From assembly GCA_947500545.1 (NCBI GenBank), contig CANMSO010000013.1, forward strand, positions 24,491 to 88,490: a stretch of 64,000 bases of DNA, read 5' to 3'. Positions 47,622 through 64,000 of this stretch are shown here, in pieces (the first letter of the stretch is position 1; every line of letters starts with the position of its first letter). This stretch comes from an uncultured Aquimarina sp. (GTDB lineage: Bacteria > Bacteroidota > Bacteroidia > Flavobacteriales > Flavobacteriaceae). The notes beneath the pieces are model-generated. The model saw nothing but the letters and a program-made list of their open reading frames with translations, had not been told where the DNA came from and searched no databases. The position numbers and the translations under genes were made by a program.

Positions 47622-48383
47622 TTATCGTATTCCCTTTATAAAATCACCAATTCTATCTACACCATTATTTTTAATGTGCTTAATAAAAGCAGAACCAATA
47701 ATAGCGCCTTTTGCAGTTTTGGTAGCTTGGGTGAATGTTTCATTATTACTAATACCAAACCCTACAATCTGCGGGTTTTTAAGGTTTAATGATTCAATAC
47801 GTTCAAAATAAAGTTGTTGTGCATTACCAAAAGTATTTTTGGCACCAGTAGTGCTGGCAGAACTTACCATGTAGATAAACCCATTAGACACACTGTCGAT
47901 AAACTTAATTCGATCATCAGAGGTTTGTGGAGTAATTAGAAATACGTTGATCAATCCATATTTTTCAAATGTTTCTTGATACTGCTCATGATATTCTGCT
48001 ACCGGTAGATCGGGTATGATTAATCCATCAATACCTATTTCTTGGCATTTTGCGCAAAAGGCTTCTACACCATATTGCATCATTGGATTAAAATATCCCA
48101 TAATGATCAGAGGGATGCTTACAGATTGACGGATATCTTTTAATTGATCAAACAAAATGTTGGTTGTCATTCCATTCTTAAGAGCGGCAGTCGAACTTTC
48201 TTGTATAGTTGGTCCATCTGCCAAAGGGTCACTAAAGGGTAGTCCAATCTCAATCATATCAACACCGCTATTCTCTAGATCCTGTATTACTTTTACAGTA
48301 TCATTTAGCGAAGGATACCCTGCTGTAAAATATATGGATAATAGTTTTTTGTCTTCTGCTAATTTTTGATTTATTCTGTTCAT
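47622..48383 (-). CDS. trpA: Tryptophan synthase alpha chain
   Basis: YFTAGYP, IEIGLPFSDPLADGPTIQ, VGFGIS. ATG 48383 preferred. Confidence 0.97.
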   Translation of the reverse strand: MNRINQKLAEDKKLLSIYFTAGYPSLNDTVKVIQDLENSGVDMIEIGLPFSDPLADGPTIQESSTAALKNGMTTNILFDQLKDIRQSVSIPLIIMGYFNPMMQYGVEAFCAKCQEIGIDGLIIPDLPVAEYHEQYQETFEKYGLINVFLITPQTSDDRIKFIDSVSNGFIYMVSSASTTGAKNTFGNAQQLYFERIESLNLKNPQIVGFGISNNETFTQATKTAKGAIIGSAFIKHIKNNGVDRIGDFIKGIR

Positions 48384-48402
48384 TATAATAATTATAAGTT
48401 TC

Positions 48403-48531
48403 GTCATTCCTCTAAAGCGGAAATCTTTTCATTTTCTTGTTTTACTTGTCATCCCAGCGTAGGCTGGGATCCACAATCTGGTTTAAGCATTTGGTTAATA
48501 TTTTGGATTCCAGCCTACGCTGGAATGACAA
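48403..48531. repeat. REP/REPIN-like palindromic element
   Basis: Inverted 28-nt arms at 48446-48473 and 48504-48531, each a hairpin, plus a degenerate copy at 48403-48426. Confidence 0.8.
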
Positions 48532-48546
48532 AATCTTTTAGGTTGG

Positions 48547-49728
48547 TTATAATTTAAAATAATCTATGTACGTGTTCAAATCCTTATCCCCACGGCCAGA
48601 AAGGCTAATTACTACAATATCATTAGGGTTGAATTTCTTATCATTAAAAATAGCCAAGGCGTGTGAGGATTCTATGGCAGGTATAATACCTTCTAGTTGC
48701 GATAATTCTAATCCTGCAGTCATAGCATCATCATCTGTAACAGAATAAAATTCTCCACGACCAGTTTTATAAAGATGAGAATGTAGCGGTCCCACTCCTG
48801 GGTAATCAAGTCCAGCTGAAATTGAATATGGCTCAGTAATCTGACCATCTGCAGTTTGCATTAATAAAGTTTTACACCCATGAATTATTCCTTCTTTTCC
48901 TAATTGAGAAGTAGCAGCGCTCTCACCACTATGCACACCTTTTCCTGCTGCCTCAACCGCTATAATACCCACACTTGGTTCATCTAGAAAGTGATAGTAT
49001 GTTCCTGCTGCATTACTACCACCACCAATACACGCCACAACATAATCAGGATTTTCTCTTCCTTCTTTCTCTTTTAGTTGCCATTTAATTTCTTCAGAAA
49101 TAATCGACTGAAAACGCGTTACCATATCCGGGTAAGGATGAGGTCCGATGGCAGAACCAATAATGTAGTGTGTATCTACTGGGTTATTAATCCAATCACG
49201 AATCGCTTCGTTGGTTGCATCTTTTAGGGTTTTACTTCCGGATTTAGCGGGTCTAACTTCTGCGCCAAGCATTTTCATACGAGCTACATTAGGTGCCTGA
49301 CGTTTGATGTCAATTTCGCCCATATAAACGATACATTGTATCCCCATTAAAGCACATACTGTAGCAGTTGCAACACCATGCTGTCCGGCGCCAGTTTCTG
49401 CAATAATTCTGTTTTTACCTAGTTTTTTTGCAACAAGGATCTGACCAATTGTATTATTTACTTTATGCGCACCGGTATGGTTAAGGTCCTCACGTTTCAG
49501 ATATACTTTTGTGTTGTGTTTTTCTGAAAGACGTTTAGCATAATAAAGAGGAGAAGGGCGACCAACATAATCTTTTAGCAACTGATCAAACTCTTCCTTA
49601 AAAGAAGGTTCGTTCATGATATCTAAATATGTTGTGCGTAATTCTTCTACATTTGGATACAGCATTTCAGGAATATAAGCTCCACCAAAATCTCCGTAAT
49701 ATCCCTTCTCATTAACTTGATAGGTCAT
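48547..49728 (-). CDS. trpB: Tryptophan synthase beta chain
   Basis: [40 protein letters not shown]. Confidence 0.98.
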
Positions 49729-50387
49729 AATGTAATTTTTTTGTTCCCTTTTTGTGTTGGGAATAGTTGGTTTTTAAATTTTTCTAAGTCTTTTATATCT
49801 TTTAATCCAGGTTTGATCTCGAATTTACTATTTACATCAATAGCATAAATTGGCAGATCGGTTTTTAGGATTGCTTTTATTTTTTCAATTTCACCAAGTC
49901 CGATACCTCCACTTAAAATAAATGGAGTAGAGGAAGGATAATCTTTTAAAACGCTCCAATCAAAAGTATATCCATTACCGCCTTTTTCTTTTCCTTTGGT
50001 GTCAAATAAGAAATAGTCTACTATACCTTCATAGGATTTAAGTGTATCAAAGTCGAATTCGTCTTTGATAGAGAATACTTTCCACACTTCGACAAGCTCA
50101 GTATGATGTTTTAATTGCAATTTCAAATCCTGACAATATGCAGGGACCTCATTGCCATGCAATTGCACGGTTTTAAAACTATATTGTTTTACTTTTTCAA
50201 TTATAAAATCAATAGAAGCATCTACAAATACTCCCGTCTTTTTGATAGCTGGAGGAAGATCTGGAATTTCACCTTCAAAGTTTCGAGGAGATTTCTCATA
50301 GAAAATAAAGCCCAAATAGTCGGGTTGTAGGGCAGCAACTGCTTCCATATTTTCTTGATATTTCATTCCGCAAACCTTAAGCTTCAT
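49725..50387 (-). CDS. trpF: Phosphoribosylanthranilate isomerase
   Basis: [30 protein letters not shown]. Confidence 0.95.
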
Positions 50388-51169
50388 GATTCTAATTTTT
50401 TTATAAATTCTATCGCGCTATTGCCAGGGTGTTCGGTTTTCATAAAGTTTTCACCAATAAGGAAACCTTTATATCCGTATTGTTTTAGGTCTTTGATAGC
50501 TTCAATACTACTAATCCCACTTTCTGAAACTTTTACAAAATCATCTGGGATTTGTATGCTTAGTGATTTACTAATAGCTGTACTTACCTCAAAAGTCTTA
50601 AGATTTCGGTTGTTTACACCTAACATATCAAGCGATGGCATAATCGATTTTTCTAATTCCTCTTGATTATGAACTTCTAGCAATACATCTAATGACAAAC
50701 TTTTTGCAAATTGTGATAATGACTTGATTTGATCTCTAGACAATACTGCGGCAATTAATAATATCACATCTGCTCCATGAGCTTTAGCTTCTAATAATTG
50801 ATATTCATCTATAATAAATTCTTTACGAAGCAATGGTAGTTGAACAGAAGATCTAGCTAGTAAAAGATCGTCTAATGATCCTCCAAAATATTTTCCGTCA
50901 GTCAATACGGACATTCCACAAACCCCAGCTTCTTCATATCCTGTGGCTACATCTTGTACACTTACTTTCTGGTTTATGACGGCTTTAGAAGGAGATCTAC
51001 GTTTATGCTCTGCAATGATACCGGTATTGCTATTTCGTAAAGCAGTAGCTAGTGAATTTACTTCACGATCAAATAACACCGAACTCTCTAATTGGGTAAC
51101 GGGAATTAAACTTTTTTTGAGTTCAACTTCTTTGTATTTATCTGCTACTATTTTATCTAAGATATTCAT
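50384..51169 (-). CDS. trpC: Indole-3-glycerol phosphate synthase
   Basis: IAEHKRRSPSK, LLRKEFI, GVNNRNL, SESGI. Confidence 0.96.
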   Translation of the reverse strand: MNILDKIVADKYKEVELKKSLIPVTQLESSVLFDREVNSLATALRNSNTGIIAEHKRRSPSKAVINQKVSVQDVATGYEEAGVCGMSVLTDGKYFGGSLDDLLLARSSVQLPLLRKEFIIDEYQLLEAKAHGADVILLIAAVLSRDQIKSLSQFAKSLSLDVLLEVHNQEELEKSIMPSLDMLGVNNRNLKTFEVSTAISKSLSIQIPDDFVKVSESGISSIEAIKDLKQYGYKGFLIGENFMKTEHPGNSAIEFIKKLES

Positions 51170-51175
51170 TTTTAG

Positions 51176-51568
51176 TTATTTGTTAATGGTTTTTGGTTGG
51201 TTGTTTTCATTTTTATTTAATGTCTGATAATAATTTATGAACCCATTTAATAACTTTTTGCAGCTTATTATTTGATCTAATAATGCTCTATGTTCATTTG
51301 TTTGAATATAATCTTGATCTAAAGCTAGGTAAGATTGAGTTTCTAATTCATACAAAGAACCTCTAGAAATATAAAAAAAATGTATGCTCTCTTTAGAAGT
51401 TTTTCTTCCACAACCTTCGGCTATATTTGAAGGGATAGAAACAGCACATCTTCTCATTTGACTAGTTAATCCATACATTTCATCTTTTGGGAATTTCTTA
51501 GTTACATCATAAAGATTATTAACCAAAAGTCTTGTTTCTTTCCATACTTTTAATTCGGTGTATTCCAT
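51176..51568 (-). CDS. Four-helix-bundle protein (23S rRNA-IVS protein family)
   Basis: LKVWKE, FPKDEMYGLTSQMRRCAVSIPSNIAEG, SRGSLYELETQ. Confidence 0.92.
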   Translation of the reverse strand: MEYTELKVWKETRLLVNNLYDVTKKFPKDEMYGLTSQMRRCAVSIPSNIAEGCGRKTSKESIHFFYISRGSLYELETQSYLALDQDYIQTNEHRALLDQIISCKKLLNGFINYYQTLNKNENNQPKTINK

Positions 51569-51597
51569 TTTATCAATAATCAACTAACAACGATTAA

Positions 51598-52593
51598 CTA
51601 ATTTTTACTTAATTCTTGTATTTTATTTAATGCGATCAATCCTTTTCCTGAAAGTAAAGATTCTTTGGCACGTTCAAATCCTTGTTTTGGTTGTAACCCA
51701 TCTACAGTTGCAATTGCCATTCCGGCATTGGCGCAGACCACATTGTTCTGTGCTTCTGTGCCTTTTCCGCTTAGGATATTCATAAATATATTAGCTGATT
51801 CTTCTACAGAGTCTCCACCTACAATTTCTTCCTGTTTTAAAACAGATACTCCAAAGTCATTAGGTGTTAACATCCCTTCAGTATTGTTTGAAATAGTTTT
51901 GGTATTTCCGGTAAGCGAAATTTCATCATAACCATCTAATGCATGAACAATGGTAAAATTTTTATCGGTGTTTTGATATAAGTAACCATACATCCTTGCC
52001 AATTCAAGGTTGAAAACACCTACTATTTGATTTTTTGGAAATGCTGGATTTACCATTGGCCCAAGCATATTAAAAAACGTTTTTACACCTAGCTCCCTGC
52101 GAATGGGGGCTACATTTTTCATTGCGGGATGAAATAATGGAGCGTGCAATACACAAATCCCTGCTTCATCTATACTACGCTTTAGGAAATCTTTATCATT
52201 ACTGAATTTAATGCCTAGATGTTCCATCACATTAGAGCTTCCGCATTTTGAGGATACCCCGTAATTACCATGTTTCGTAACTTTTATTCCGGCTCCCGCT
52301 GAAACAAAGGATGAAAGTGTAGAGATATTAAAAGTATCTTTTCCATCGCCTCCCGTACCACAAAGATCTATAGGATTGTACTCACTAAGATCTACTGCTA
52401 CACATAATTCTAATAATGCATCTCTAAAACCTTCAAGTTCTTCAACAGTAATACTGCGCATCATGTATACAGTTAAGAATGATGCTATCTGACTTTGGTT
52501 ATATTCTCCTTTAGAAATATTGACCAAAACACCTTTGGCCTCTTCTTTAGAGATAGTTTCGTGATTGATTAATCGGTTGAGTAGATTTTTCAT
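51598..52593 (-). CDS. trpD: Anthranilate phosphoribosyltransferase
   Basis: DLCGTGGDG, TFNIST, KHGN, GYDE. Confidence 0.97.
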   Translation of the reverse strand: MKNLLNRLINHETISKEEAKGVLVNISKGEYNQSQIASFLTVYMMRSITVEELEGFRDALLELCVAVDLSEYNPIDLCGTGGDGKDTFNISTLSSFVSAGAGIKVTKHGNYGVSSKCGSSNVMEHLGIKFSNDKDFLKRSIDEAGICVLHAPLFHPAMKNVAPIRRELGVKTFFNMLGPMVNPAFPKNQIVGVFNLELARMYGYLYQNTDKNFTIVHALDGYDEISLTGNTKTISNNTEGMLTPNDFGVSVLKQEEIVGGDSVEESANIFMNILSGKGTEAQNNVVCANAGMAIATVDGLQPKQGFERAKESLLSGKGLIALNKIQELSKN

Positions 52594-52601
52594 GTTAACT
52601 T

Positions 52602-53174
52602 TTAATTATTGATCCAGTTTTCTAACATTTTTTTTCCATCAGGAGTTAACACCGATTCAGGATGAAATTGTACTCCACGAACATCTAATTCCTTATGGCG
52701 TAAGGACATGATTTGCCCGTTTTCGTCATACGATGTAACCTCTAGACAATTTGGTAAATCATTATCTGCCACTACCCATGAGTGATATCTACCTACATCA
52801 AAAGCACTATCCAATCCTTTAAACAAAAGTTCGTCAGTAACAGATAATGTTACTTTGGTAGCAACGCCGTGATATACTTCATCAAGATTGATTATGTTTC
52901 CGCCAAAAACCTCTCCTATTGCTTGCTGTCCCAGACAAACACCAAATATACTTTTGGTACTTGCGTAGGTGCTAATAATATCTTTTAGTAACCCAGCTTC
53001 GTCCGGTACTCCGGGTCCTGGTGAGAGTAATATTTTGTGGTACTGTTCTACATCTTTTAATTGTAATTGGTCATTACGCTTTACGATGACTTCGCATCCC
53101 AAGTCCTCTAGATAATGGACCAGATTATATACGAATGAATCGTAGTTGTCTATTACTAATACTTTTTTATTCAT
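52602..53174 (-). CDS. trpG: Anthranilate synthase component II
   Basis: IDNYDSF, SPGPG, GVCLG, QFHPES. Confidence 0.96.
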   Translation of the reverse strand: MNKKVLVIDNYDSFVYNLVHYLEDLGCEVIVKRNDQLQLKDVEQYHKILLSPGPGVPDEAGLLKDIISTYASTKSIFGVCLGQQAIGEVFGGNIINLDEVYHGVATKVTLSVTDELLFKGLDSAFDVGRYHSWVVADNDLPNCLEVTSYDENGQIMSLRHKELDVRGVQFHPESVLTPDGKKMLENWINN

Positions 53175-53200
53175 TACTTTGTTTCAGAGTTTCTAAGCTC

Positions 53201-54598
53201 TTATATTTCTTCAGCAAGTTTTAATGCTTTTGTTAATGCTCCTAGTTTATTATACACTTCTTGTAGTTCATTTTCTTCGTTAGATTCATTTACTAATCCT
53301 GCTCCGGCCTGCCAATGTAGAGAATGGTTTTTGCTTAGGAATGTGCGAATCATAATGGCATGATTAAAATTTCCAGAGAAATCCATAAAACCTATGGCTC
53401 CTCCATAAAAATCTCTATTTACGGTTTCGTATTTTTCAATAAGTTGCATGGCCATGTGTTTTGGAGCACCACTTAATGTCCCGGCCGGAAAAGTGTCAGC
53501 CACAACTTGCATAGTCGTAGTTTCTGGATGTTTTTTGCCAGTTACTTTACTTACCAAGTGAATTACATGAGAATAAAATTGAACTTCTCTATAGGTATCT
53601 ACGGTTACATTACTTCCGTTACGACTAAGATCATTACGAGCTAAATCTACCAACATTACGTGTTCTGCATTTTCTTTTTCGTCTACAGATAATTTTTTAG
53701 CCAATTCAGCATCTTGCTCATCGTTGCCGGTACGTTTAAAGGTTCCTGCAATAGGATGGATCTCGGCAATATCATCTTTTACCACCAATTGTGCTTCTGG
53801 AGAACTACCAAAAATTTTAAAATCACCATAATCAAAATAGAATAGATAGGGTGATGGGTTTATACTTCTTAAGGCGCGATATACATTAAATTCATCACCT
53901 TTGAATTTTTGTGAAAAACGTTTTGATAGCACAAGCTGAAAAACATCACCGCGTTGACAATGTTTTTTGGCTAGTGCTACATGTGCCTTATATTGCTCAT
54001 CATCCAGGTTAGAAGTAGTTTCACCAGTAGTTGTGAAATTATATGAAGCAAAGTTCTTTACGTTTAATAAGGATTCTATTTCGGCTACATTACTTTCAGA
54101 ATTATAGCAATGTGCAAAAATGTATGCTTCGTTATTAAAATGATTGATGGCAATTATGTTTTGATATACAGTGTATTGCATATCAGGAATATTAAGCCCT
54201 CCTTCTTTTTTAGAAATAGAAATATCCTCAAAATAACGAACTGCGTCATAAGAAATATAACCAAAAAGGCCGTTGTTTATAAATTTGAAATCACTTTTCG
54301 AAGTTTCGAATTGTTGACCAAATTGTTGGATTATTTCGGGAATATTGGTGTTACTGGTTACCTCTATTTTGGTACTGCTTTTATCAGGAAACGATTGATA
54401 AATGACTTCGTTTTCGATCTTGATATTGGCTATAGGGTTACAACAGATATACGAGAAACTGTTTTCGTTTCCTCTATAATCACTACTTTCTAGTAATAGG
54501 CTATTAGGGAAACGATCTCTAATCTTAAGATAAACACTTACCGGAGTAATAGTATCAGCAAGTATTTGTTTGTAATGTGTGGTTAATTGATAGCTCAT
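53201..54598 (-). CDS. trpE: Anthranilate synthase component I
   Basis: LLES, NPSPY, PIAGT, EHVMLVDLARND, GTLSGAPK. Confidence 0.97.
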   Translation of the reverse strand: MSYQLTTHYKQILADTITPVSVYLKIRDRFPNSLLLESSDYRGNENSFSYICCNPIANIKIENEVIYQSFPDKSSTKIEVTSNTNIPEIIQQFGQQFETSKSDFKFINNGLFGYISYDAVRYFEDISISKKEGGLNIPDMQYTVYQNIIAINHFNNEAYIFAHCYNSESNVAEIESLLNVKNFASYNFTTTGETTSNLDDEQYKAHVALAKKHCQRGDVFQLVLSKRFSQKFKGDEFNVYRALRSINPSPYLFYFDYGDFKIFGSSPEAQLVVKDDIAEIHPIAGTFKRTGNDEQDAELAKKLSVDEKENAEHVMLVDLARNDLSRNGSNVTVDTYREVQFYSHVIHLVSKVTGKKHPETTTMQVVADTFPAGTLSGAPKHMAMQLIEKYETVNRDFYGGAIGFMDFSGNFNHAIMIRTFLSKNHSLHWQAGAGLVNESNEENELQEVYNKLGALTKALKLAEEI

Positions 54599-54644: not shown

Positions 54645-54677
54645 AAAAAAAAGGCTTGTCGTGATTTGACAAGCCTT
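54645..54677 (-). terminator. trp attenuator terminator hairpin
   Basis: Minus strand AAGGCTTGTC-aaatcac-GACAAGCCTT followed by a U-run, upstream of trpE. Confidence 0.88.
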
Positions 54678-54707
54678 TGATATGTTTACTTAACACAATA
54701 ACAGGAT

Positions 54708-54770
54708 CTATCTCACGACGTTTTCGTTTTGAGAAGACCACCACCAATTATTTGTTAAGATTACTTTCAT
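54708..54770 (-). CDS. trpL: trp operon leader peptide
   Basis: Manual translation MKVILTNNWWWSSQNENVVR*, three tandem TGG codons. Confidence 0.9.
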   Translation of the reverse strand: MKVILTNNWWWSSQNENVVR

Positions 54771-54786
54771 TTTTTATTTATTGAGT

Positions 54787-54794
54787 CAAATATA
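54787..54794 (-). promoter_or_regulatory. -7 box of the trp leader
   Basis: Minus strand TATATTTG, 16 nt before the trpL ATG. Confidence 0.65.
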
Positions 54795-58179: not shown

Positions 58180-58217
58180 AAACAAAAAAGCTCCTCATTT
58201 GAGGGGCTTTTTTGTTT
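58180..58217 (+). terminator. Intrinsic terminator
   Basis: AAACAAAAAAGCTCCTC-attt-GAGGGGCTTTTTTGTTT. Confidence 0.82.
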
Positions 58218-58463
58218 TAATGATATAGTATGATTCCATTTTTATAAGTGTATAAATTTTGCACACTCAATTATCAATAGATTTACCTTAATAAGTAGAA
58301 AACGAATACCAGAGTTTATCCCAATTAAGAATATATATACCGATTCGTAGGGTAAACCTCCTAATACAAAGTCTAGCCCGCTGTATGTAAATTCTAACTA
58401 GTGCGTTGTTGATGTTTCAAGTATTTTGAATTTCAAATATTAACAATTAAAACCTAGTAAACA

Positions 58464-59219
58464 ATGAAAAACGTAATTAACCTTTTAGTAATCGCCATGC
58501 TATTATTGATGAGCTGTGAAACAGAGCCTACATCTCCAGATGAACAATTGTTTGAGAAAGAATTGAATGAGGCAGCTGTTTTTAAAGCCTTATTTTTCTA
58601 TTTGGGAGATGAGGTCAAAGCGATTTCTTCTTATGAACAACAAGTAATGTTTTTAGAAAAAAATAAGTTAGAAAACGATGGCTTCATAGAAGATTATGAA
58701 GCATATGCTAACGCATATTTAGAAAAAGTGAAAGAAAGAAACCCTGTGTTTCTGAACCAGCTAAAAAATGCGGTACAAAGTAGAGATTTTGAGCAAATCA
58801 GAGCCTCAATGGTTTATGGAGGTAATCTCATGAGGGCAATAACTAGCATTGATGCCTTAAAAACGATCAAAGATGAAGGCGTTACGAGTAAATTTGCTAA
58901 GCTTAATTTGGAGGCTTATGATTTTACAAATTCTAAAGAATTAGAATTGCTAGTTAATGACTTAAAAGTTATTATCAAAAGAGCAGATCCGACTCCTCAT
59001 CCTGATATTGCGTTTATCTATGCATATCAATGGAACAATATTTATATCTACAATAATATATTAAGTTGGACGTATGCCAATGTTTTGGTTAATGATTTTT
59101 TAGACCTGGGACTTAAGGAAATAGGTGATTATAATCCTATTGGACAGTACGGAGCTAATTCAAATTACGAAAACTACTCTGGTGAAAGACTGATTGAAGA
59201 GATTGCATTTGCTTTTTAA
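58464..59219 (+). CDS. SdpC-like antimicrobial peptide precursor with a lipoprotein signal
   Basis: LLLMSC lipobox-like site; VFKALFFYLG and KVKERNPVFLNQLKNAVQSRD resemble the B. subtilis SdpC pro-domain as recalled; lies upstream of SdpA/B-like genes. Confidence 0.7.
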   Translation: MKNVINLLVIAMLLLMSCETEPTSPDEQLFEKELNEAAVFKALFFYLGDEVKAISSYEQQVMFLEKNKLENDGFIEDYEAYANAYLEKVKERNPVFLNQLKNAVQSRDFEQIRASMVYGGNLMRAITSIDALKTIKDEGVTSKFAKLNLEAYDFTNSKELELLVNDLKVIIKRADPTPHPDIAFIYAYQWNNIYIYNNILSWTYANVLVNDFLDLGLKEIGDYNPIGQYGANSNYENYSGERLIEEIAFAF

Positions 59220-59359
59220 TCACTAATTCTTCTTGGTTTTTGAATTAAGTACAAAAAATAAGAAGAGCTTCACAGTAAATAATAGAAATAAACCTTCCAA
59301 CTTATAAAAGCTGGAAGGTTTACAGATTTCTCAATTTCTATAATCTAAATAATAGTAAC

Positions 59360-59893
59360 ATGAAACATACACTCTTATTCTTTGGGTTTGTGGTGCTAGT
59401 TGGTTTTTTACATCTTAATTTTATTACCACAGTGGGAAATAATGTTATGGATGTGTCAACAAAAGAGAAAAACGTGATTAGGTTTCTCTTTCCACAAGGT
59501 TGGGGGTTCTTCACCAGAAATCCAAGAGAACCAAAATATAAATTGTACCAAATTAAAGAAGGACAATTGCAATTGGTTACTTTTCAAATCACTTCCTCAA
59601 AGAATTATTATGGCCTTTCTAGAAAAGGAAGTCGTATGGGGATGGAAATGCATCGAATAAAAGATAATTTACCACCAACCGACAGTTGGAAATCTTCGAA
59701 GATTCAATTAAGAAACATAGATTTAGATGCGATTTCTTATTCTTGTGTAGACGTGGTATCTAGCTTGTTGTACATAGAAGAAGGAAACTATATACTCAAA
59801 GAATATCACATTACTCCTTGGTCTTGGGCCAAACATCAAAGCCGTTATTCGAAAACGTTTAAATACATTCCATTTCAATTAATAAAATCATGA
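59360..59893 (+). CDS. SdpA-family protein
   Basis: TM helix, then FPQGWGFFTRNPRE and YYGLSRKGSR; PWSWA near the end. Confidence 0.82.
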   Translation: MKHTLLFFGFVVLVGFLHLNFITTVGNNVMDVSTKEKNVIRFLFPQGWGFFTRNPREPKYKLYQIKEGQLQLVTFQITSSKNYYGLSRKGSRMGMEMHRIKDNLPPTDSWKSSKIQLRNIDLDAISYSCVDVVSSLLYIEEGNYILKEYHITPWSWAKHQSRYSKTFKYIPFQLIKS

Positions 59894-60855
59894 TAGCGCA
59901 GTACCAAAATGCTTATACAGAAATGAGCAAACAATTGTTTTCAAACAACCCATTTACCTGGGTGTATGGATTATCCAGAACTACTCTCGCTATATGTTCT
60001 TTGATAACACTCACTTTTAGTGAGACTACTGTATTATTTGATGAAGCTATTTATAATAACCGTCTAAAGGAGGAAATATTCAACCAATACAACTTATTTT
60101 ACCTATTTGGATGGGAGTATTTGAGATATGCCAAAGCTTTGGCAATTTTGTTGTTGTTATTAGTTGCTTCTGGATGGCGCCCACGATTTACAGGGGTGTT
60201 TCAATGGTGGGTCACGGCTAGTTTTTATTATTCATCGAGTATTCTTGAAGGAGGAGATCAGATTGCGATGATTCTTACTTTATTATTAATTCCAGTTACT
60301 TTGTTGGATAATAGGAAATGGCATTGGCAAACTTGTGATCGATTTTCTGAATACAAAAAATTTGTTGGCAATTTGATGTTTGTATCGGTGGCTCTTCAGA
60401 TGTCCTTACTGTATTTAAATGCTGCGATGGATAAAATCTATACTTCTGACGAGTGGAAGGTGGGTAGCGCATTTTATTACTATGTTAATGATGCATTTTT
60501 TAGTTATCCCGATTGGATGGATCCACTAATGATAAATCTGCTTAACAATTCTTTCTTTGTCTCTGCAGTTACCTGGGGTACCATTTTATTAGAACTGATG
60601 CTATTTGGTATTCTTTTTTCTAGTACTAAGAATAAGCGTTTGTTGTTTCCGTTTGCTGTAATGTTTCACTTCGCAATTGTACTGTTCTTAGGATTGTTTA
60701 GTTTCTTTTTTGCAATGTTAGGAGGATTGATATTGTATTTAGTTCCGAAAGAAACTCCAGTACCAAGATTTAAGTTTCAGAAGCCAAGTTTTATTTCGTG
60801 GATTAAGATTTCAGAATTTCTACCAATCCCTTTCCTAAAAAAGAATAGTTTATAA
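59890..60855 (+). CDS. SdpB-family HTTM-like membrane protein
   Basis: ATGA overlap with the upstream gene; NPFTWVYGLSRT, SGWRPR, EGGDQI, QMSLLYLNAA, FHFAI. Confidence 0.82.
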   Translation: MIAQYQNAYTEMSKQLFSNNPFTWVYGLSRTTLAICSLITLTFSETTVLFDEAIYNNRLKEEIFNQYNLFYLFGWEYLRYAKALAILLLLLVASGWRPRFTGVFQWWVTASFYYSSSILEGGDQIAMILTLLLIPVTLLDNRKWHWQTCDRFSEYKKFVGNLMFVSVALQMSLLYLNAAMDKIYTSDEWKVGSAFYYYVNDAFFSYPDWMDPLMINLLNNSFFVSAVTWGTILLELMLFGILFSSTKNKRLLFPFAVMFHFAIVLFLGLFSFFFAMLGGLILYLVPKETPVPRFKFQKPSFISWIKISEFLPIPFLKKNSL

Positions 60856-60911
60856 AAATTTCTAAGAGAAAAATCCTGAAGTACTACTAAATCTATATTG
60901 ACTTCGAAAAC

Positions 60912-60940
60912 AAAAAGCTCCTTATTAGAGAAGCTTTTTT
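60912..60940 (+). terminator. Probable intrinsic terminator after the sdp-like cassette
   Basis: AAAAAGCT ... AGCTTTTTT inverted repeat. Confidence 0.6.
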
Positions 60941-61221
60941 CTTTTTATTTCCAGGGTGGGTAGGAGCGTTTATTAAAGTCCGGTTAATTTTTGTATCTTT
61001 ATTAATAATCTGACCCTCAAATATTTATATAGAATCTAGGTGAATTACCTGTTTTTAAATAAAACCATCGAAAACCCCTTCACAACGAACTAAAAAAGGT
61101 GAGTATTTATTAAAAGTTATGCATAACAAGCCATAATTAGTTCTGTAAATGGAATAAAACCATCGTACTTGACCATTAAATGTGAACTATTTTTAAAGAT
61201 CTTTCTTAATGTTAATAAACC

Positions 61222-63960
61222 ATGGGGGTAAATGACGAAATAAATATTTTTATTGCATATTCTAGAAAGGATGAAAATTACCTTATAGAATTAAAAAAAT
61301 ATGTAATCCCATTAGAACGTAGAAAATCTATTAATTTCTGGTATGATGGTGAAATAAAGCCAGGAGAAGTATGGGAGGAGGAAATAAAAAAACAATTACA
61401 TAAAGCCGATATAGTAATCCTTCTTGTTAGTGCAAATTCTATTGCTTCTGAATATTTTTATGAAAAGGAAGTGGCTGACGCACTAGAGCGGCATAATAAT
61501 AATGAAACCATAGTAATTCCTATTATTTTAAAAAACTGTGCCTGGAACTTAACTCCTCTATTTGATTTACAAGCGCTTCCCAAGAATGGAAAACCCATTA
61601 GCAACTGGAAAGATGATTCAGATGCATATACCTATATAGTTCATAAATTGAATGAAAGGATTGAAACCATTCTCGATAAGAGATTAGAAGTCAAAGATAA
61701 GCAGAAACAAAAAGAGAAAGCTGAAGCAAAAAGAAAGGCTGAAGAAAAACGGAAACAAAAACAGGAAGAGGAGGCTGAAGTAAGAAGACAGGTAGAAGAA
61801 AAGCGGAAACAAAAAGAGGAGGCTGAGTCTAAAAGACAGACGGAAGAAAAACGGAAACAGGAAGAGGAAGCTGAGACGAAAAGACAAACAGAGGAAAAGC
61901 AGAAACAAAAAGAAGAAGCTGAGGTAAAAAGTTCGATTGAGCAGAAACAGTATGAAGTGTCTTGGAGAAGGGTTGAAAAATCCTTTTGGTTATATAAAGA
62001 AGGAAATTTAATTAGTGGTATCGGTAAAACCGCAAGTGCTTGGTTTGATAATGATCTTCTCGTTTTTCATAAGGAAAGTAAAATAACTTATGTTCTTGAA
62101 AATTATAAAAACTTAGCAGATAATAAATTAAGACCGGCAAAAATACTGGGACAACATGAAGTATACTGGAGAGGGCATGATAATTTATATTGGTTATATA
62201 AACAAGGAAATTTAATTAGCTCAGGTGGCAAAACGACCAGTACCTGGTCTGGAAATGATCTTATTGTTTACCATAAAGCTAGCAAAACGAAATATGTACT
62301 TAAGAATTATAGGAATTTGCAGGATAATGCTTTGAGGCCTGCAAAAATATATAATGAGACAACAAGAAATAAAGAGGTATTTGGGATTAAAAAGAAACGA
62401 TACAGAACCTCAATAATAATTGCGGCTATAATCGGAGTTATTATAGGTGTAATATGGATATCTAAAGGTATACGGGATGATTTTGCATGGAAAGACGCAA
62501 CTCGTTTTAATACAATTTATGGATATAAAGTATACCAGAAAAATTATCCAAGAGGATCACACTTTTATGAAGCTCAAAGAAGGATTACTAAAATCGAAAG
62601 TGAAAAAAATGACTGGGATAGATTGTCTTTGCTGAACACCAAAGAAGCTTATGAAGAATATTTGAAAAACCATCCTTATGGGGCTAATGCTTATAATGCT
62701 AAAAAACAAATTGAGGAGATACAAAAAAATGATTGGGAAAGAGCTCTTGCATTAAATACTGCAGATGCCTATAATGATTATTTAAAAAATTACCCAAGAG
62801 GGTCATGGGTATCTGTCGCCAAAGAGAAACTGAAAGCCCAGGTAGAAAAAGAAGCAGACGGAAATCAGGAATTAAAAAAGAAAATCAAGGCTCTACCGGT
62901 CAAGAAAAAAGTGAAAATAACAGGAAATAAGACCGTGAGTGAACAGTATGAAGTGTCTTGGAAGAAATCGGGAAATAAATATTGGTTATATAAAAGGGGA
63001 GTTTTAATTACCGGAGATGGAACTAGTACTTGGTCGGATAATGATCTTCTGGCTTATGACAAAAATAGCAAAATGACTTATCTTCTTGAAGATTATAAAA
63101 ATCTGAAAGAAAATGAGTTAAGGCCTGCAAAAATATTAGGAGACAATGAAGTATACTATAGAGGGACCAAAGATATATATTGGTTGTATAAACAAGGAAG
63201 TTTAATTAATGGAGACGGGAAAACAACATCTTCTTGGTCTGTTAATGATGAACTTGTTTATCACAAGAATAGCAAAATGACCTATCTTCTTGAAAATGCC
63301 GCTAATTTGCTAGATAATAAATTAAGACCTGCTAAAATATTAGGGAAGCATGAGGTATATTGGAGAGGAAACAAAGATACATATTGGTTATATATACAAG
63401 GAAGTCTAATTAGTGGGAAAGGAATAACAACATCTGTCTGGTCTGGTAATGATGCTCTTGTTTACAATAAGAATAGCAAAATGACATATCTTCTTGAGAA
63501 TTGTAAAATACGGAAGGGTAATAAGTTAAGGTCTGCAGAAATATTAGGAAATCATGAAGTGTATTGGAGAGGAGATAAGAATGTATATTGGTTGTATAAA
63601 CAAGGAAGTTTAATTAATGGCGGGAGTGGAAAAACAACAAATTCTTGGTTTGACAAAAACCTTGTTGTTTATCATAAGAATAGTAAAATAACCTATCTTT
63701 TTAAGAACTATACAAATTCGAAGGATAATATGTTAAGACCTGCAAAAATACTAGGCCAAAATGAAGTATACTGGAGGAATGATAAAGGTCAGTATTGTTT
63801 GTACAAGCAAGGAAATATAATTAGTGGAGTAGGGAAAACAAAAACAACTTGGTCCGGTAGTGATTTACATGTTCTTCACCAAGCTAGTGGAATAACTTAT
63901 ATTTTGGAGAACTACAAAAATTTAGCCGATAATACACTAAGGCCCACAAAGAGGCTGTAA
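61222..63960 (+). CDS. TIR-domain membrane protein with a coiled coil and seven ~68-aa repeats
   Basis: TIR motifs IFIAYSRKD, FWYD, SEYFYEKEV and VIPII; E/K-rich linker; TM IIIAAIIGVIIGVIWI; internal repeats. Confidence 0.88.
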   Translation: MGVNDEINIFIAYSRKDENYLIELKKYVIPLERRKSINFWYDGEIKPGEVWEEEIKKQLHKADIVILLVSANSIASEYFYEKEVADALERHNNNETIVIPIILKNCAWNLTPLFDLQALPKNGKPISNWKDDSDAYTYIVHKLNERIETILDKRLEVKDKQKQKEKAEAKRKAEEKRKQKQEEEAEVRRQVEEKRKQKEEAESKRQTEEKRKQEEEAETKRQTEEKQKQKEEAEVKSSIEQKQYEVSWRRVEKSFWLYKEGNLISGIGKTASAWFDNDLLVFHKESKITYVLENYKNLADNKLRPAKILGQHEVYWRGHDNLYWLYKQGNLISSGGKTTSTWSGNDLIVYHKASKTKYVLKNYRNLQDNALRPAKIYNETTRNKEVFGIKKKRYRTSIIIAAIIGVIIGVIWISKGIRDDFAWKDATRFNTIYGYKVYQKNYPRGSHFYEAQRRITKIESEKNDWDRLSLLNTKEAYEEYLKNHPYGANAYNAKKQIEEIQKNDWERALALNTADAYNDYLKNYPRGSWVSVAKEKLKAQVEKEADGNQELKKKIKALPVKKKVKITGNKTVSEQYEVSWKKSGNKYWLYKRGVLITGDGTSTWSDNDLLAYDKNSKMTYLLEDYKNLKENELRPAKILGDNEVYYRGTKDIYWLYKQGSLINGDGKTTSSWSVNDELVYHKNSKMTYLLENAANLLDNKLRPAKILGKHEVYWRGNKDTYWLYIQGSLISGKGITTSVWSGNDALVYNKNSKMTYLLENCKIRKGNKLRSAEILGNHEVYWRGDKNVYWLYKQGSLINGGSGKTTNSWFDKNLVVYHKNSKITYLFKNYTNSKDNMLRPAKILGQNEVYWRNDKGQYCLYKQGNIISGVGKTKTTWSGSDLHVLHQASGITYILENYKNLADNTLRPTKRL
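61720..61929 (+). repeat. ~48-nt imperfect tandem repeat encoding (E/K)EEAExKRQxEEKRKQ
   Basis: About four 16-aa units visible in both DNA and protein. Confidence 0.8.
61951..62352 (+). repeat. Two copies of the ~204-nt coding repeat before the TM helix
   Basis: Unit starts at 61951 and 62155. Confidence 0.85.
62947..63957 (+). repeat. Five copies of the ~204-nt coding repeat after the TM helix
   Basis: Unit starts at 62947, 63145, 63349, 63553 and 63760. Confidence 0.85.
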
Positions 63961-64000
63961 GAAAAATATAACATCTGTTAAAAATATGTTCTGTAGATAT

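Follow-up and report, generated by a model that had tools for sequence, protein, structure and literature searches.

A gene close to the right end of the 64,000-nucleotide stretch examined here (the window; uncultured Aquimarina sp., contig CANMSO010000013.1, positions 24,491 to 88,490) encodes a 912-residue protein in which a TIR domain, a charged spacer, arrays of a 68-residue beta repeat and a single transmembrane (TM) helix are joined in one chain, and is a well-defined candidate for outside-in TIR signaling in bacteria. The protein may be a stand-alone sensor-effector of the conflict or programmed-death type, in which sensor-driven clustering of the TIR domain would lead to NAD+ cleavage; we hold this reading to be evenly balanced between right and wrong. 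The architecture itself is confirmed. A first-pass annotation made from the sequence had described an N-terminal TIR domain retaining a Glu in the motif SEYFYEKEV, a charged helix, two repeats, one TM helix, three helical repeats and five further repeats, and this order is borne out by profile hidden Markov models (HMMs) and hydropathy, the Glu being the invariant E83 of a domain matched by both Pfam TIR_2 and PADLOC ThsB1.

Bacterial TIR domains are NAD+-cleaving enzymes of antiphage and conflict systems and are activated by clustering, oligomerisation-triggered activation being an established rule for the enzymatic members. Pfam TIR_2 matches residues 9–111 (E = 4.2e-15; 56.7 bits against a cutoff of 28), and Pfam TIR also exceeds its cutoff (E = 2.1e-5; 24.9 bits against 21.3). 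PADLOC ThsB1, the best defense-model match (residues 8–172, E = 3.9e-38), covers the TIR core only; Pfam ThsB_TIR matches the 912-residue protein weakly (E = 0.038), and an NCBIfam scan of the protein gave nothing above noise. A whole-protein search returned 29 homologues, including TIR-NB-ARC/TPR proteins, and in the 24 TIR domains aligned from them E83 is one of ten invariant positions. The HMMER alignment places it opposite the Glu of AbTir “nyEL”, of Cat1 “wdEL” and of Roq1 “WCLEEL” (chain residue 86), which we take to be the Roq1 catalytic glutamate; in enzymatic TIRs the catalytic Glu stands where helix alphaC begins. When the TIR-family profile is compared with the PDB, the best solved relatives are the NAD+-cleaving TIRs Cat1 (8.6e-9) and AbTir (1.5e-6), and the TIR structures of TLR1/2/6/10 are also detected (E 4e-5 to 6e-3).

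A profile search gives at least 2408 proteins at E<=1e-20, so that the TIR clade is a large one. Short TIR proteins rank highest in it, many of them of Nostoc-type cyanobacteria, and among the best profile matches are TIR-EAD9, EAD2-TIR, and EAD1-TIR proteins with 36–45% identity to the TIR domain of the window. Effector-associated domains (EADs) belong to NTP-dependent conflict systems, in which TIR-EADs are the effector components (Kaur et al., eLife 2020/2021, PMC7159879, PMC8195603). Judged by these relationships, the domain reads as a TIR of the effector type whose catalytic residue is intact, from the effector clade that also supplies the TIR-EADs of cyanobacterial conflict systems.

Residues 396–416 are the only strongly hydrophobic stretch of the protein (Kyte-Doolittle 19-mer maximum 2.55). 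The net charge of the flanks is +6 before and +1 after this helix, and the N-side flank is the more positive one in 15 of 16 TIR-TM relatives. By the positive-inside rule, the protein is predicted to span the inner membrane once, as a type-II protein with its N-terminus inside, the TIR domain in the cytoplasm and the module following the helix outside. We also considered a toxin, polymorphic or secreted, and a TcpB-like virulence TIR aimed at a host, and rejected both, as the TIR domain is N-terminal, lies on the predicted cytoplasmic side of the helix and is not preceded by a signal peptide.

The relatives of the protein form a family with a constant inner and a variable outer part. All nine best TIR matches (P0002, P0005–P0012) have a TIR domain, a charged linker, one hydrophobic helix, and a differing C-terminal module, and P0015, P0016, P0024, and P0026 have the same plan with a variable C-terminus. 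The modules found after the TM helix in relatives include FGE-sulfatase, WG_beta_rep, and Lcl_C/DUF1566, or none that is recognised; those members that carry a name belong to Chitinophagales, Saprospiraceae, and Maribacter, all Bacteroidota. P0002 is the sole relative with the layout of the window protein (41% identity), having two repeats, the TM helix, three helical motifs, and two repeats. A sensor-effector receptor design predicts that only the module beyond the membrane is exchanged, and the observed exchange on a constant TIR-linker-helix chassis is the strongest support for the receptor-like reading, which is supported in part. The family also looks self-contained, because the inspected neighborhoods share no gene: those of six relatives have nothing in common, and in the two-sided neighborhoods of P0007, P0008, P0012, and P0024 and on the short P0002 contig there is no shared neighbor and no ThsA, SIR2, SLOG, or Macro gene. 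Neither a STAND or MoxR-vWA NTPase core nor EAD adaptors were seen beside the inspected TIR-TM relatives.

The 68-residue beta repeat occurs in seven copies (residues 243–310, 311–378, 575–640, 641–708, 709–776, 777–845, and 846–912), each detected by the repeat HMM at E 1e-37 to 1e-41; the unit of the two inner copies ends in LRPAKILG. Tandem Repeats Finder (TRF) reports a 204-nt period in the DNA of the repeat region. The outer copies are 43–69% identical to one another, and inner and outer copies are about as alike (54–63%). No Pfam or NCBIfam family was found above threshold for this repeat or for the helical motif, even when searching at E<=10; the Pfam “10_blade” match to the repeat is below threshold (E = 0.0015, 18.3 bits against 27). 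The repeat is rare: in a search of 1.84 billion representatives made without a word index, 192 proteins match a 24-unit profile at E<=1e-3, 132 of them at E<=1e-10.

AlphaFold2 (AF2) models of a double unit (predicted local distance difference test, pLDDT, 92.1; predicted template modeling score, pTM, 0.84) and of the five-unit array (pLDDT 91.5, pTM 0.82) are all-beta, each unit comprising five to six strands. Foldseek finds nothing at E<0.1 in the PDB for the double-unit model; the five-unit model matches beta-propellers (LRP6 YWTD, AztD, kelch/NHL) in the PDB and BFVD at E of about 1e-5, yet with TM-scores of 0.13–0.18 and a root-mean-square deviation above 20 Å. A closed beta-propeller, including a five-repeat ring, is rejected on these global TM-scores despite the confident model, and the consecutive runs of 2–7 units present in natural proteins also speak for an open array rather than a closed ring. 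From the models, we read the repeat as blade-like beta-meanders probably set in an open array, without a global structural relative in the libraries compared. A phage origin of the repeat was considered and rejected, as BFVD yields the same weak blade-like matches only.

Among 91 representatives, the Pfam partners of the repeat are Peptidase_C14 (17), TIR_2 (7), MORN (7), EAD11 (3), and Peptidase_M48 (3), with CHAT, Pkinase, DUF4145, and Dynamin_N in one case each. A layout of TIR domain, TM helix, and two repeats is present in P0101 and P0104, and P0062, P0116, and P0136 combine a TIR domain with 2–3 repeats without a TM helix. By a crude classification based on hydrophobicity, approximately 74 repeat proteins are extracytoplasmic (66 with a signal-like N-terminus and 8 with the repeat behind a TM helix) and up to 67 lack an export signal. 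The repeat thus appears to work in both compartments, which fits the presence of copies before and after the TM helix in the window protein, and its range of partners is that of a sensor or adaptor module in conflict proteins.

Several other repeat proteins were observed in the same search. P0090 (993 residues) has a Ser/Thr protein kinase, a TM helix, a bacterial SH3 domain, and two 68-residue repeats, a receptor-kinase layout parallel to the TIR version. P0040 and P0042 (approximately 495 residues) represent a class of exported enzyme having a signal peptide, an HExxH peptidase-like domain, and four repeats. A subfamily without a signal peptide (P0043, P0044, P0064, P0072, P0080, P0083, and P0085; 338–342 residues) consists of five repeats only, the copy number of the outer array of the window protein.

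The second module is a 40-residue helical motif (consensus W..A...NT..Y..YL..YP.G) in three copies (residues 418–457, 460–499, and 500–539; motif HMM E of approximately 4e-21 to 4e-22 per copy). Elsewhere it is found in three copies in P0002, in single copies in P0118 and P0124, and, by eye, beside caspases in P0034/P0035. Residues 180–328 of P0010 hold three weaker copies on the cytoplasmic side, before the TM helix, so that the helical motif, like the beta repeat, is not restricted to one compartment.

The segment between the TIR domain and the inner repeats (97 residues) is 74% E/K/R/Q and 10% hydrophobic, with 30 opposite-charge pairs at i/i+4, and its DNA is built of 48/96-nt tandem repeats according to TRF. 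The first-pass annotation had called it a long charged coiled coil: the charged segment is real, and the coiled coil is rejected, the heptad pattern being absent by composition and by a/d count (10–14% strong hydrophobics at a/d in the best register, in a simple count rather than a COILS-type program). It looks like an E/K-rich single alpha-helix (SAH-like) or a disordered, flexible spacer. A 74-residue, F/L/S-rich ORF lies antisense to the charged segment (61684–61908, minus strand); it is almost certainly an artefact that arises because the coding strand carries a purine-rich tandem repeat. The strongest GC skew (+0.27) and AT skew (+0.20) of the window lie over 62001–64000, the repeat-coding part of the gene, because the coding strand is purine-rich.

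Table 1. Coordinates in the window of the TIR gene, its predicted parts, and the segment of strain-specific cargo (ORF, open reading frame).
Feature	Coordinates	Strand	Basis
TIR gene, whole ORF (912 aa, ATG start, TAA stop)	61222..63960	+	ORF list
TIR domain, residues 1–145, predicted cytoplasmic	61222..61656	+	Pfam, PADLOC, and PDB profile matches
GAA codon of Glu83, predicted catalytic glutamate	61468..61470	+	Alignment; codon checked
E/K/R/Q-rich helical spacer, residues 146–242	61657..61947	+	Composition; TRF
Two 68-aa beta repeats on the TIR (cytoplasmic) side, residues 243–378	61948..62355	+	Repeat HMM, E = 8e-41 each
Basic juxtamembrane stretch KKKRYR and single TM helix (residues 396–416)	62356..62469	+	Kyte-Doolittle; flank charge
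Three 40-aa helical motifs, residues 418–539, predicted periplasmic	62473..62838	+	Motif HMM
Lys-rich linker, residues 540–572	62839..62937	+	Read from translation
Five 68-aa beta repeats, residues 573–912, predicted periplasmic	62938..63957	+	Repeat HMM; AF2
Strain-specific cargo: SdpCAB-like operon and TIR gene	58214..64000, right end past window		Synteny loss at 58213

The window is Aquimarina chromosomal DNA with lipA, valS, ftsH, pyc, and the trp operon (NCBIfam). Its pyruvate carboxylase clusters at >=90% with those of A. mytili and A. callyspongiae, and the homologues of its rhodaneses are all from Aquimarina. No tRNA genes were found in the window, and the sole Rfam match is a Bacteroid-trp leader (RF01692, 61.6 bits; 54668–54790, minus strand) upstream of the trp operon (47622–54598, minus strand). 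Synteny with other Aquimarina genomes covers trp, YceI, MarR, thioredoxin/peroxiredoxin, and two rhodaneses and goes no further; the closest of these genomes is approximately 97% identical in nucleotide sequence up to 58213 and not beyond. Beyond the break, the closest genome (L007, 10452 onward) has a hybrid two-component regulator (HTCS), SusC/SusD, and GH43, and two sister genomes (L008, L009; 10400–20399) have either an extracytoplasmic function (ECF) sigma factor with TPR-CHAT and Recep_L_domain proteins, or Laminin_G and a DUF6443-type giant protein. Given the absence of the gene past 58213 in the closest genome and the differing cargo of the sisters, the TIR gene is strain-specific, recently acquired accessory cargo at a variable locus that draws conflict-type genes, and the position that follows the second rhodanese gene may be a hotspot where accessory or conflict genes collect. 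No relative was found in the genome and metagenome contigs scanned, nor any sequencing run with the TIR gene.

Upstream of the TIR gene lies an SdpCAB-like operon (58464–60855, plus strand) encoding SdpC-like, SdpA (TIGR04034), and SdpB (TIGR04033, above cutoff) proteins; the SdpC-like match is weak (TIGR04032, E = 3.5e-8, below cutoff), and the protein has a lipoprotein-type N-terminus (LLMSC). This is an antimicrobial peptide system of the cannibalism-toxin type in a flavobacterium, and no SdpI/SdpR-type immunity gene was seen. The TIR protein and the three Sdp-like proteins are all singletons at 90% clustering. The gap between the SdpB-like gene and the TIR gene is 366 bp and contains an A-rich/T-rich hairpin followed by a T-run (60911–60940, AAAAAGCT...AGCTTTTTT), by eye a possible weak terminator, which was not called in a consensus terminator scan. 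A functional operon of the TIR gene with SdpCAB was considered and is unsupported, given the 366-bp gap with its hairpin and the absence of such a neighbor of P0002 on its 3.3-kb contig.

The model that we favor connects these parts as follows. A cytoplasmic N-terminal TIR domain carrying Glu83 would be held off the membrane by the spacer of approximately 97 residues, acting as an E/K-rich single helix. Sensing would fall to the 68-residue repeat arrays, with two copies on the inner and five on the outer side, the latter linked to the TM helix by a short stalk of helical repeats. Several molecules would be gathered when the arrays bind a cue or multimerise; the gathered TIR domains would form a composite active site, as in other enzymatic TIRs, and the assembly would cleave NAD+, causing its depletion or the release of products of the ADP-ribose (ADPR) type and ending in growth arrest or cell death. 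The order of the domains, the conserved Glu, the exchange of the module behind the TM helix within the family, the company that the repeat keeps with death-effector domains, and the placing of the gene at an accessory locus are observed, whereas membrane topology, clustering, an NADase output, and the trigger are the inferred parts of this model. That neither a conserved neighbor in five relatives nor a partner in the window was found speaks for a self-contained system. The first-pass annotation had proposed a Toll-like arrangement in which a periplasmic ligand clusters a cytoplasmic TIR; the single pass, the predicted N-in orientation, and the module exchange agree with it, and a purely periplasmic sensor does not stand, since two repeats lie on the TIR side. 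Together with the soluble TIR-repeat proteins, these inner copies imply that the repeat is not purely a sensor of periplasmic ligands.

Several points weigh against the favored model. The family that shares the layout is tiny, P0002 being its one other member, so that purifying selection on the whole layout rests on two sequences. The charged segment appears to have no obvious dimerisation interface. Ligand sensing in the periplasm may be an incomplete account, or a mistaken one, because the same repeat is found on both sides of the membrane and in soluble TIR-repeat proteins. The locus is not a classical defense island, PADLOC giving nothing convincing nearby, and a partner gene 3' of the TIR gene is possible in this genome, the partner survey having covered the upstream 61 kb.

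The last point bears most on a Thoeris-like arrangement, in which a ThsB-type TIR would make a messenger of the cyclic-ADPR/His-ADPR type for a separately encoded effector located past 64 kb or elsewhere. PADLOC ThsB1 is the strongest family match, with the weak Pfam ThsB_TIR match beside it, the catalytic Glu is conserved, and there is room for an effector 3' of the gene beyond the window; however, ThsB-type HMM matches are generic for TIR_2-type domains, and an EAD2-TIR protein also matches ThsB_TIR. The first-pass annotation saw no Thoeris or other effector partner in the window, and PADLOC agrees: among the 53 other ORFs, covering 61 kb upstream, there is no ThsA, SIR2, SLOG, or Macro gene, only generic AAA, radical-SAM, and kinase-type matches, accounted for by housekeeping genes that NCBIfam names in the same ORF set (e.g., FtsH, lipoyl synthase). 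With no effector in the inspected neighborhoods of the relatives either, we consider this arrangement unlikely.

The repeat may instead be a homotypic adaptor that self-associates (the “EAD principle”) and co-assembles with other repeat-bearing proteins such as secreted caspases, M48 peptidases, and five-repeat-only proteins, the TIR domain being either an enzyme or a scaffold; periplasmic and cytoplasmic events in the same cell would then be linked. The fusion of the repeat to many different effectors, some also with EAD11, its occurrence in exported proteins (signal-like or behind a TM helix) as well as in those without an export signal, the existence of repeat-only proteins of exactly five units, and the equal similarity of inner and outer copies (about 62%) are all in accord with such an adaptor. 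Nevertheless, no second gene with a TIR domain, the 68-residue repeat or the helical motif was found in the 64-kb window, no inspected neighborhood links repeat proteins together, and a TIR serving only as scaffold fits poorly with an invariant catalytic Glu, which makes this account rather improbable. Very improbable is a surface or envelope protein of the ordinary sort, such as an adhesin or a repeat protein associated with the cell wall, with a TIR domain that serves housekeeping or regulation outside immunity; although the family stands among housekeeping genes in several genomes and the blade-like beta structure of the arrays is typical of binding domains, the gene is missing from the closest genome despite flanks that are approximately 97% identical and is a singleton at 90% clustering, hence not housekeeping, the fusion partners of the repeat are overwhelmingly death or conflict effectors, and the TIR clade is an effector clade.

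A wider and more doubtful possibility is that the TIR-TM proteins are functional analogues of Toll-like receptors (TLRs) in Bacteroidota, in which an interchangeable outer module (68-residue repeat, FGE-sulfatase/C-type-lectin-like, WG, or Lcl_C) passes a signal through the inner membrane to a TIR enzyme. In that case, a threat to the envelope (phage adsorption, predator, competitor toxin, or kin signal) could be detected before or without invasion of the cytoplasm, outside-in TIR signaling would have arisen independently in bacteria, and the 68-residue repeat would be an unnamed sensor/adaptor domain of prokaryotic death machinery, used in both compartments and shared with exported caspases. 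Such a family would also offer a simple one-gene model for the control of TIR activation across a membrane. Separately, the analysis defines two unannotated modules, the 68-residue beta repeat, with a confident model and no global match in the PDB, and the 40-residue helical motif; as both travel with caspase, TIR, CHAT, and EAD domains, they are candidates for new sensor/adaptor domains in prokaryotic conflict systems.

Among known systems, Thoeris ThsB shares with the window protein a TIR domain with a catalytic Glu, and supplies its best defense-model match. ThsB proteins are mostly short and soluble, whereas the protein described here has 912 residues with a TM helix and repeat arrays, and ThsA is missing both from the ORFs of the window and from the inspected neighborhoods of relatives; on present evidence, it is not a Thoeris system. 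AbTir, Cat1, and the SARM1-type NADases carry a Glu where the catalytic residue aligns and head the PDB profile matches, but the similarity is confined to the core (E 1e-6 to 1e-9) and the regulatory context is wholly different.

The signal-peptide caspases (Peptidase_C14; P0003, P0004, P0019, P0030–P0036, and others) carry the same 68-residue repeat in 4–8 copies. Their effector is a caspase, the whole protein is predicted to be exported, and there is no TM-coupled cytoplasmic domain, in contrast to the TIR protein.

The conflict systems of Kaur et al. (PMC7159879, PMC8195603) share the TIR clade and the partner vocabulary of caspase, CHAT, EAD11, and FGE-sulfatase. They differ in that domain scans find no STAND or MoxR-vWA NTPase and no EAD in the window protein or nearby, and in that sensor and effector would here be joined across a membrane span. 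FGS has been discussed as an intracellular sensor (PMC7159879, PMC8195603), while in the TIR-TM family FGE-sulfatase follows the TM helix. The single-gene TIR antiphage systems of E. coli are stand-alone and active-site dependent, one of them having a TM segment (PMC11350192); the comparison with them is one of description. TM and repeat features of the TLR kind seem absent from bacterial TIR systems (PMC11350192), and a limited literature search found no bacterial TIR described as sensing an extracytoplasmic cue via a TM-coupled ectodomain, an absence that is not proof of novelty.

Toll, Toll-like, and IL-1 receptors have in common with the window protein an ectodomain built of repeats, a single TM helix, a TIR domain that is cytoplasmic (here by prediction), and signaling expected to proceed by the gathering of TIR domains. 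The order is inverted here, with an N-terminal TIR in a type-II protein, and domain scans give no match to leucine-rich repeats (LRR) or immunoglobulin (Ig) domains; the ectodomain is instead made of the unrelated 68-residue beta repeat and helical motifs, two repeats stand on the cytoplasmic side, and the retained catalytic Glu points to an enzyme, not to a scaffolding adaptor. The likeness to TLRs is therefore convergent and one of layout only, and the protein is not a member of the TLR family. An effector TIR fused to a sensor is a known kind of protein; what appears to be new, judging from the sequence, is the fusion across the membrane with a new repeat.

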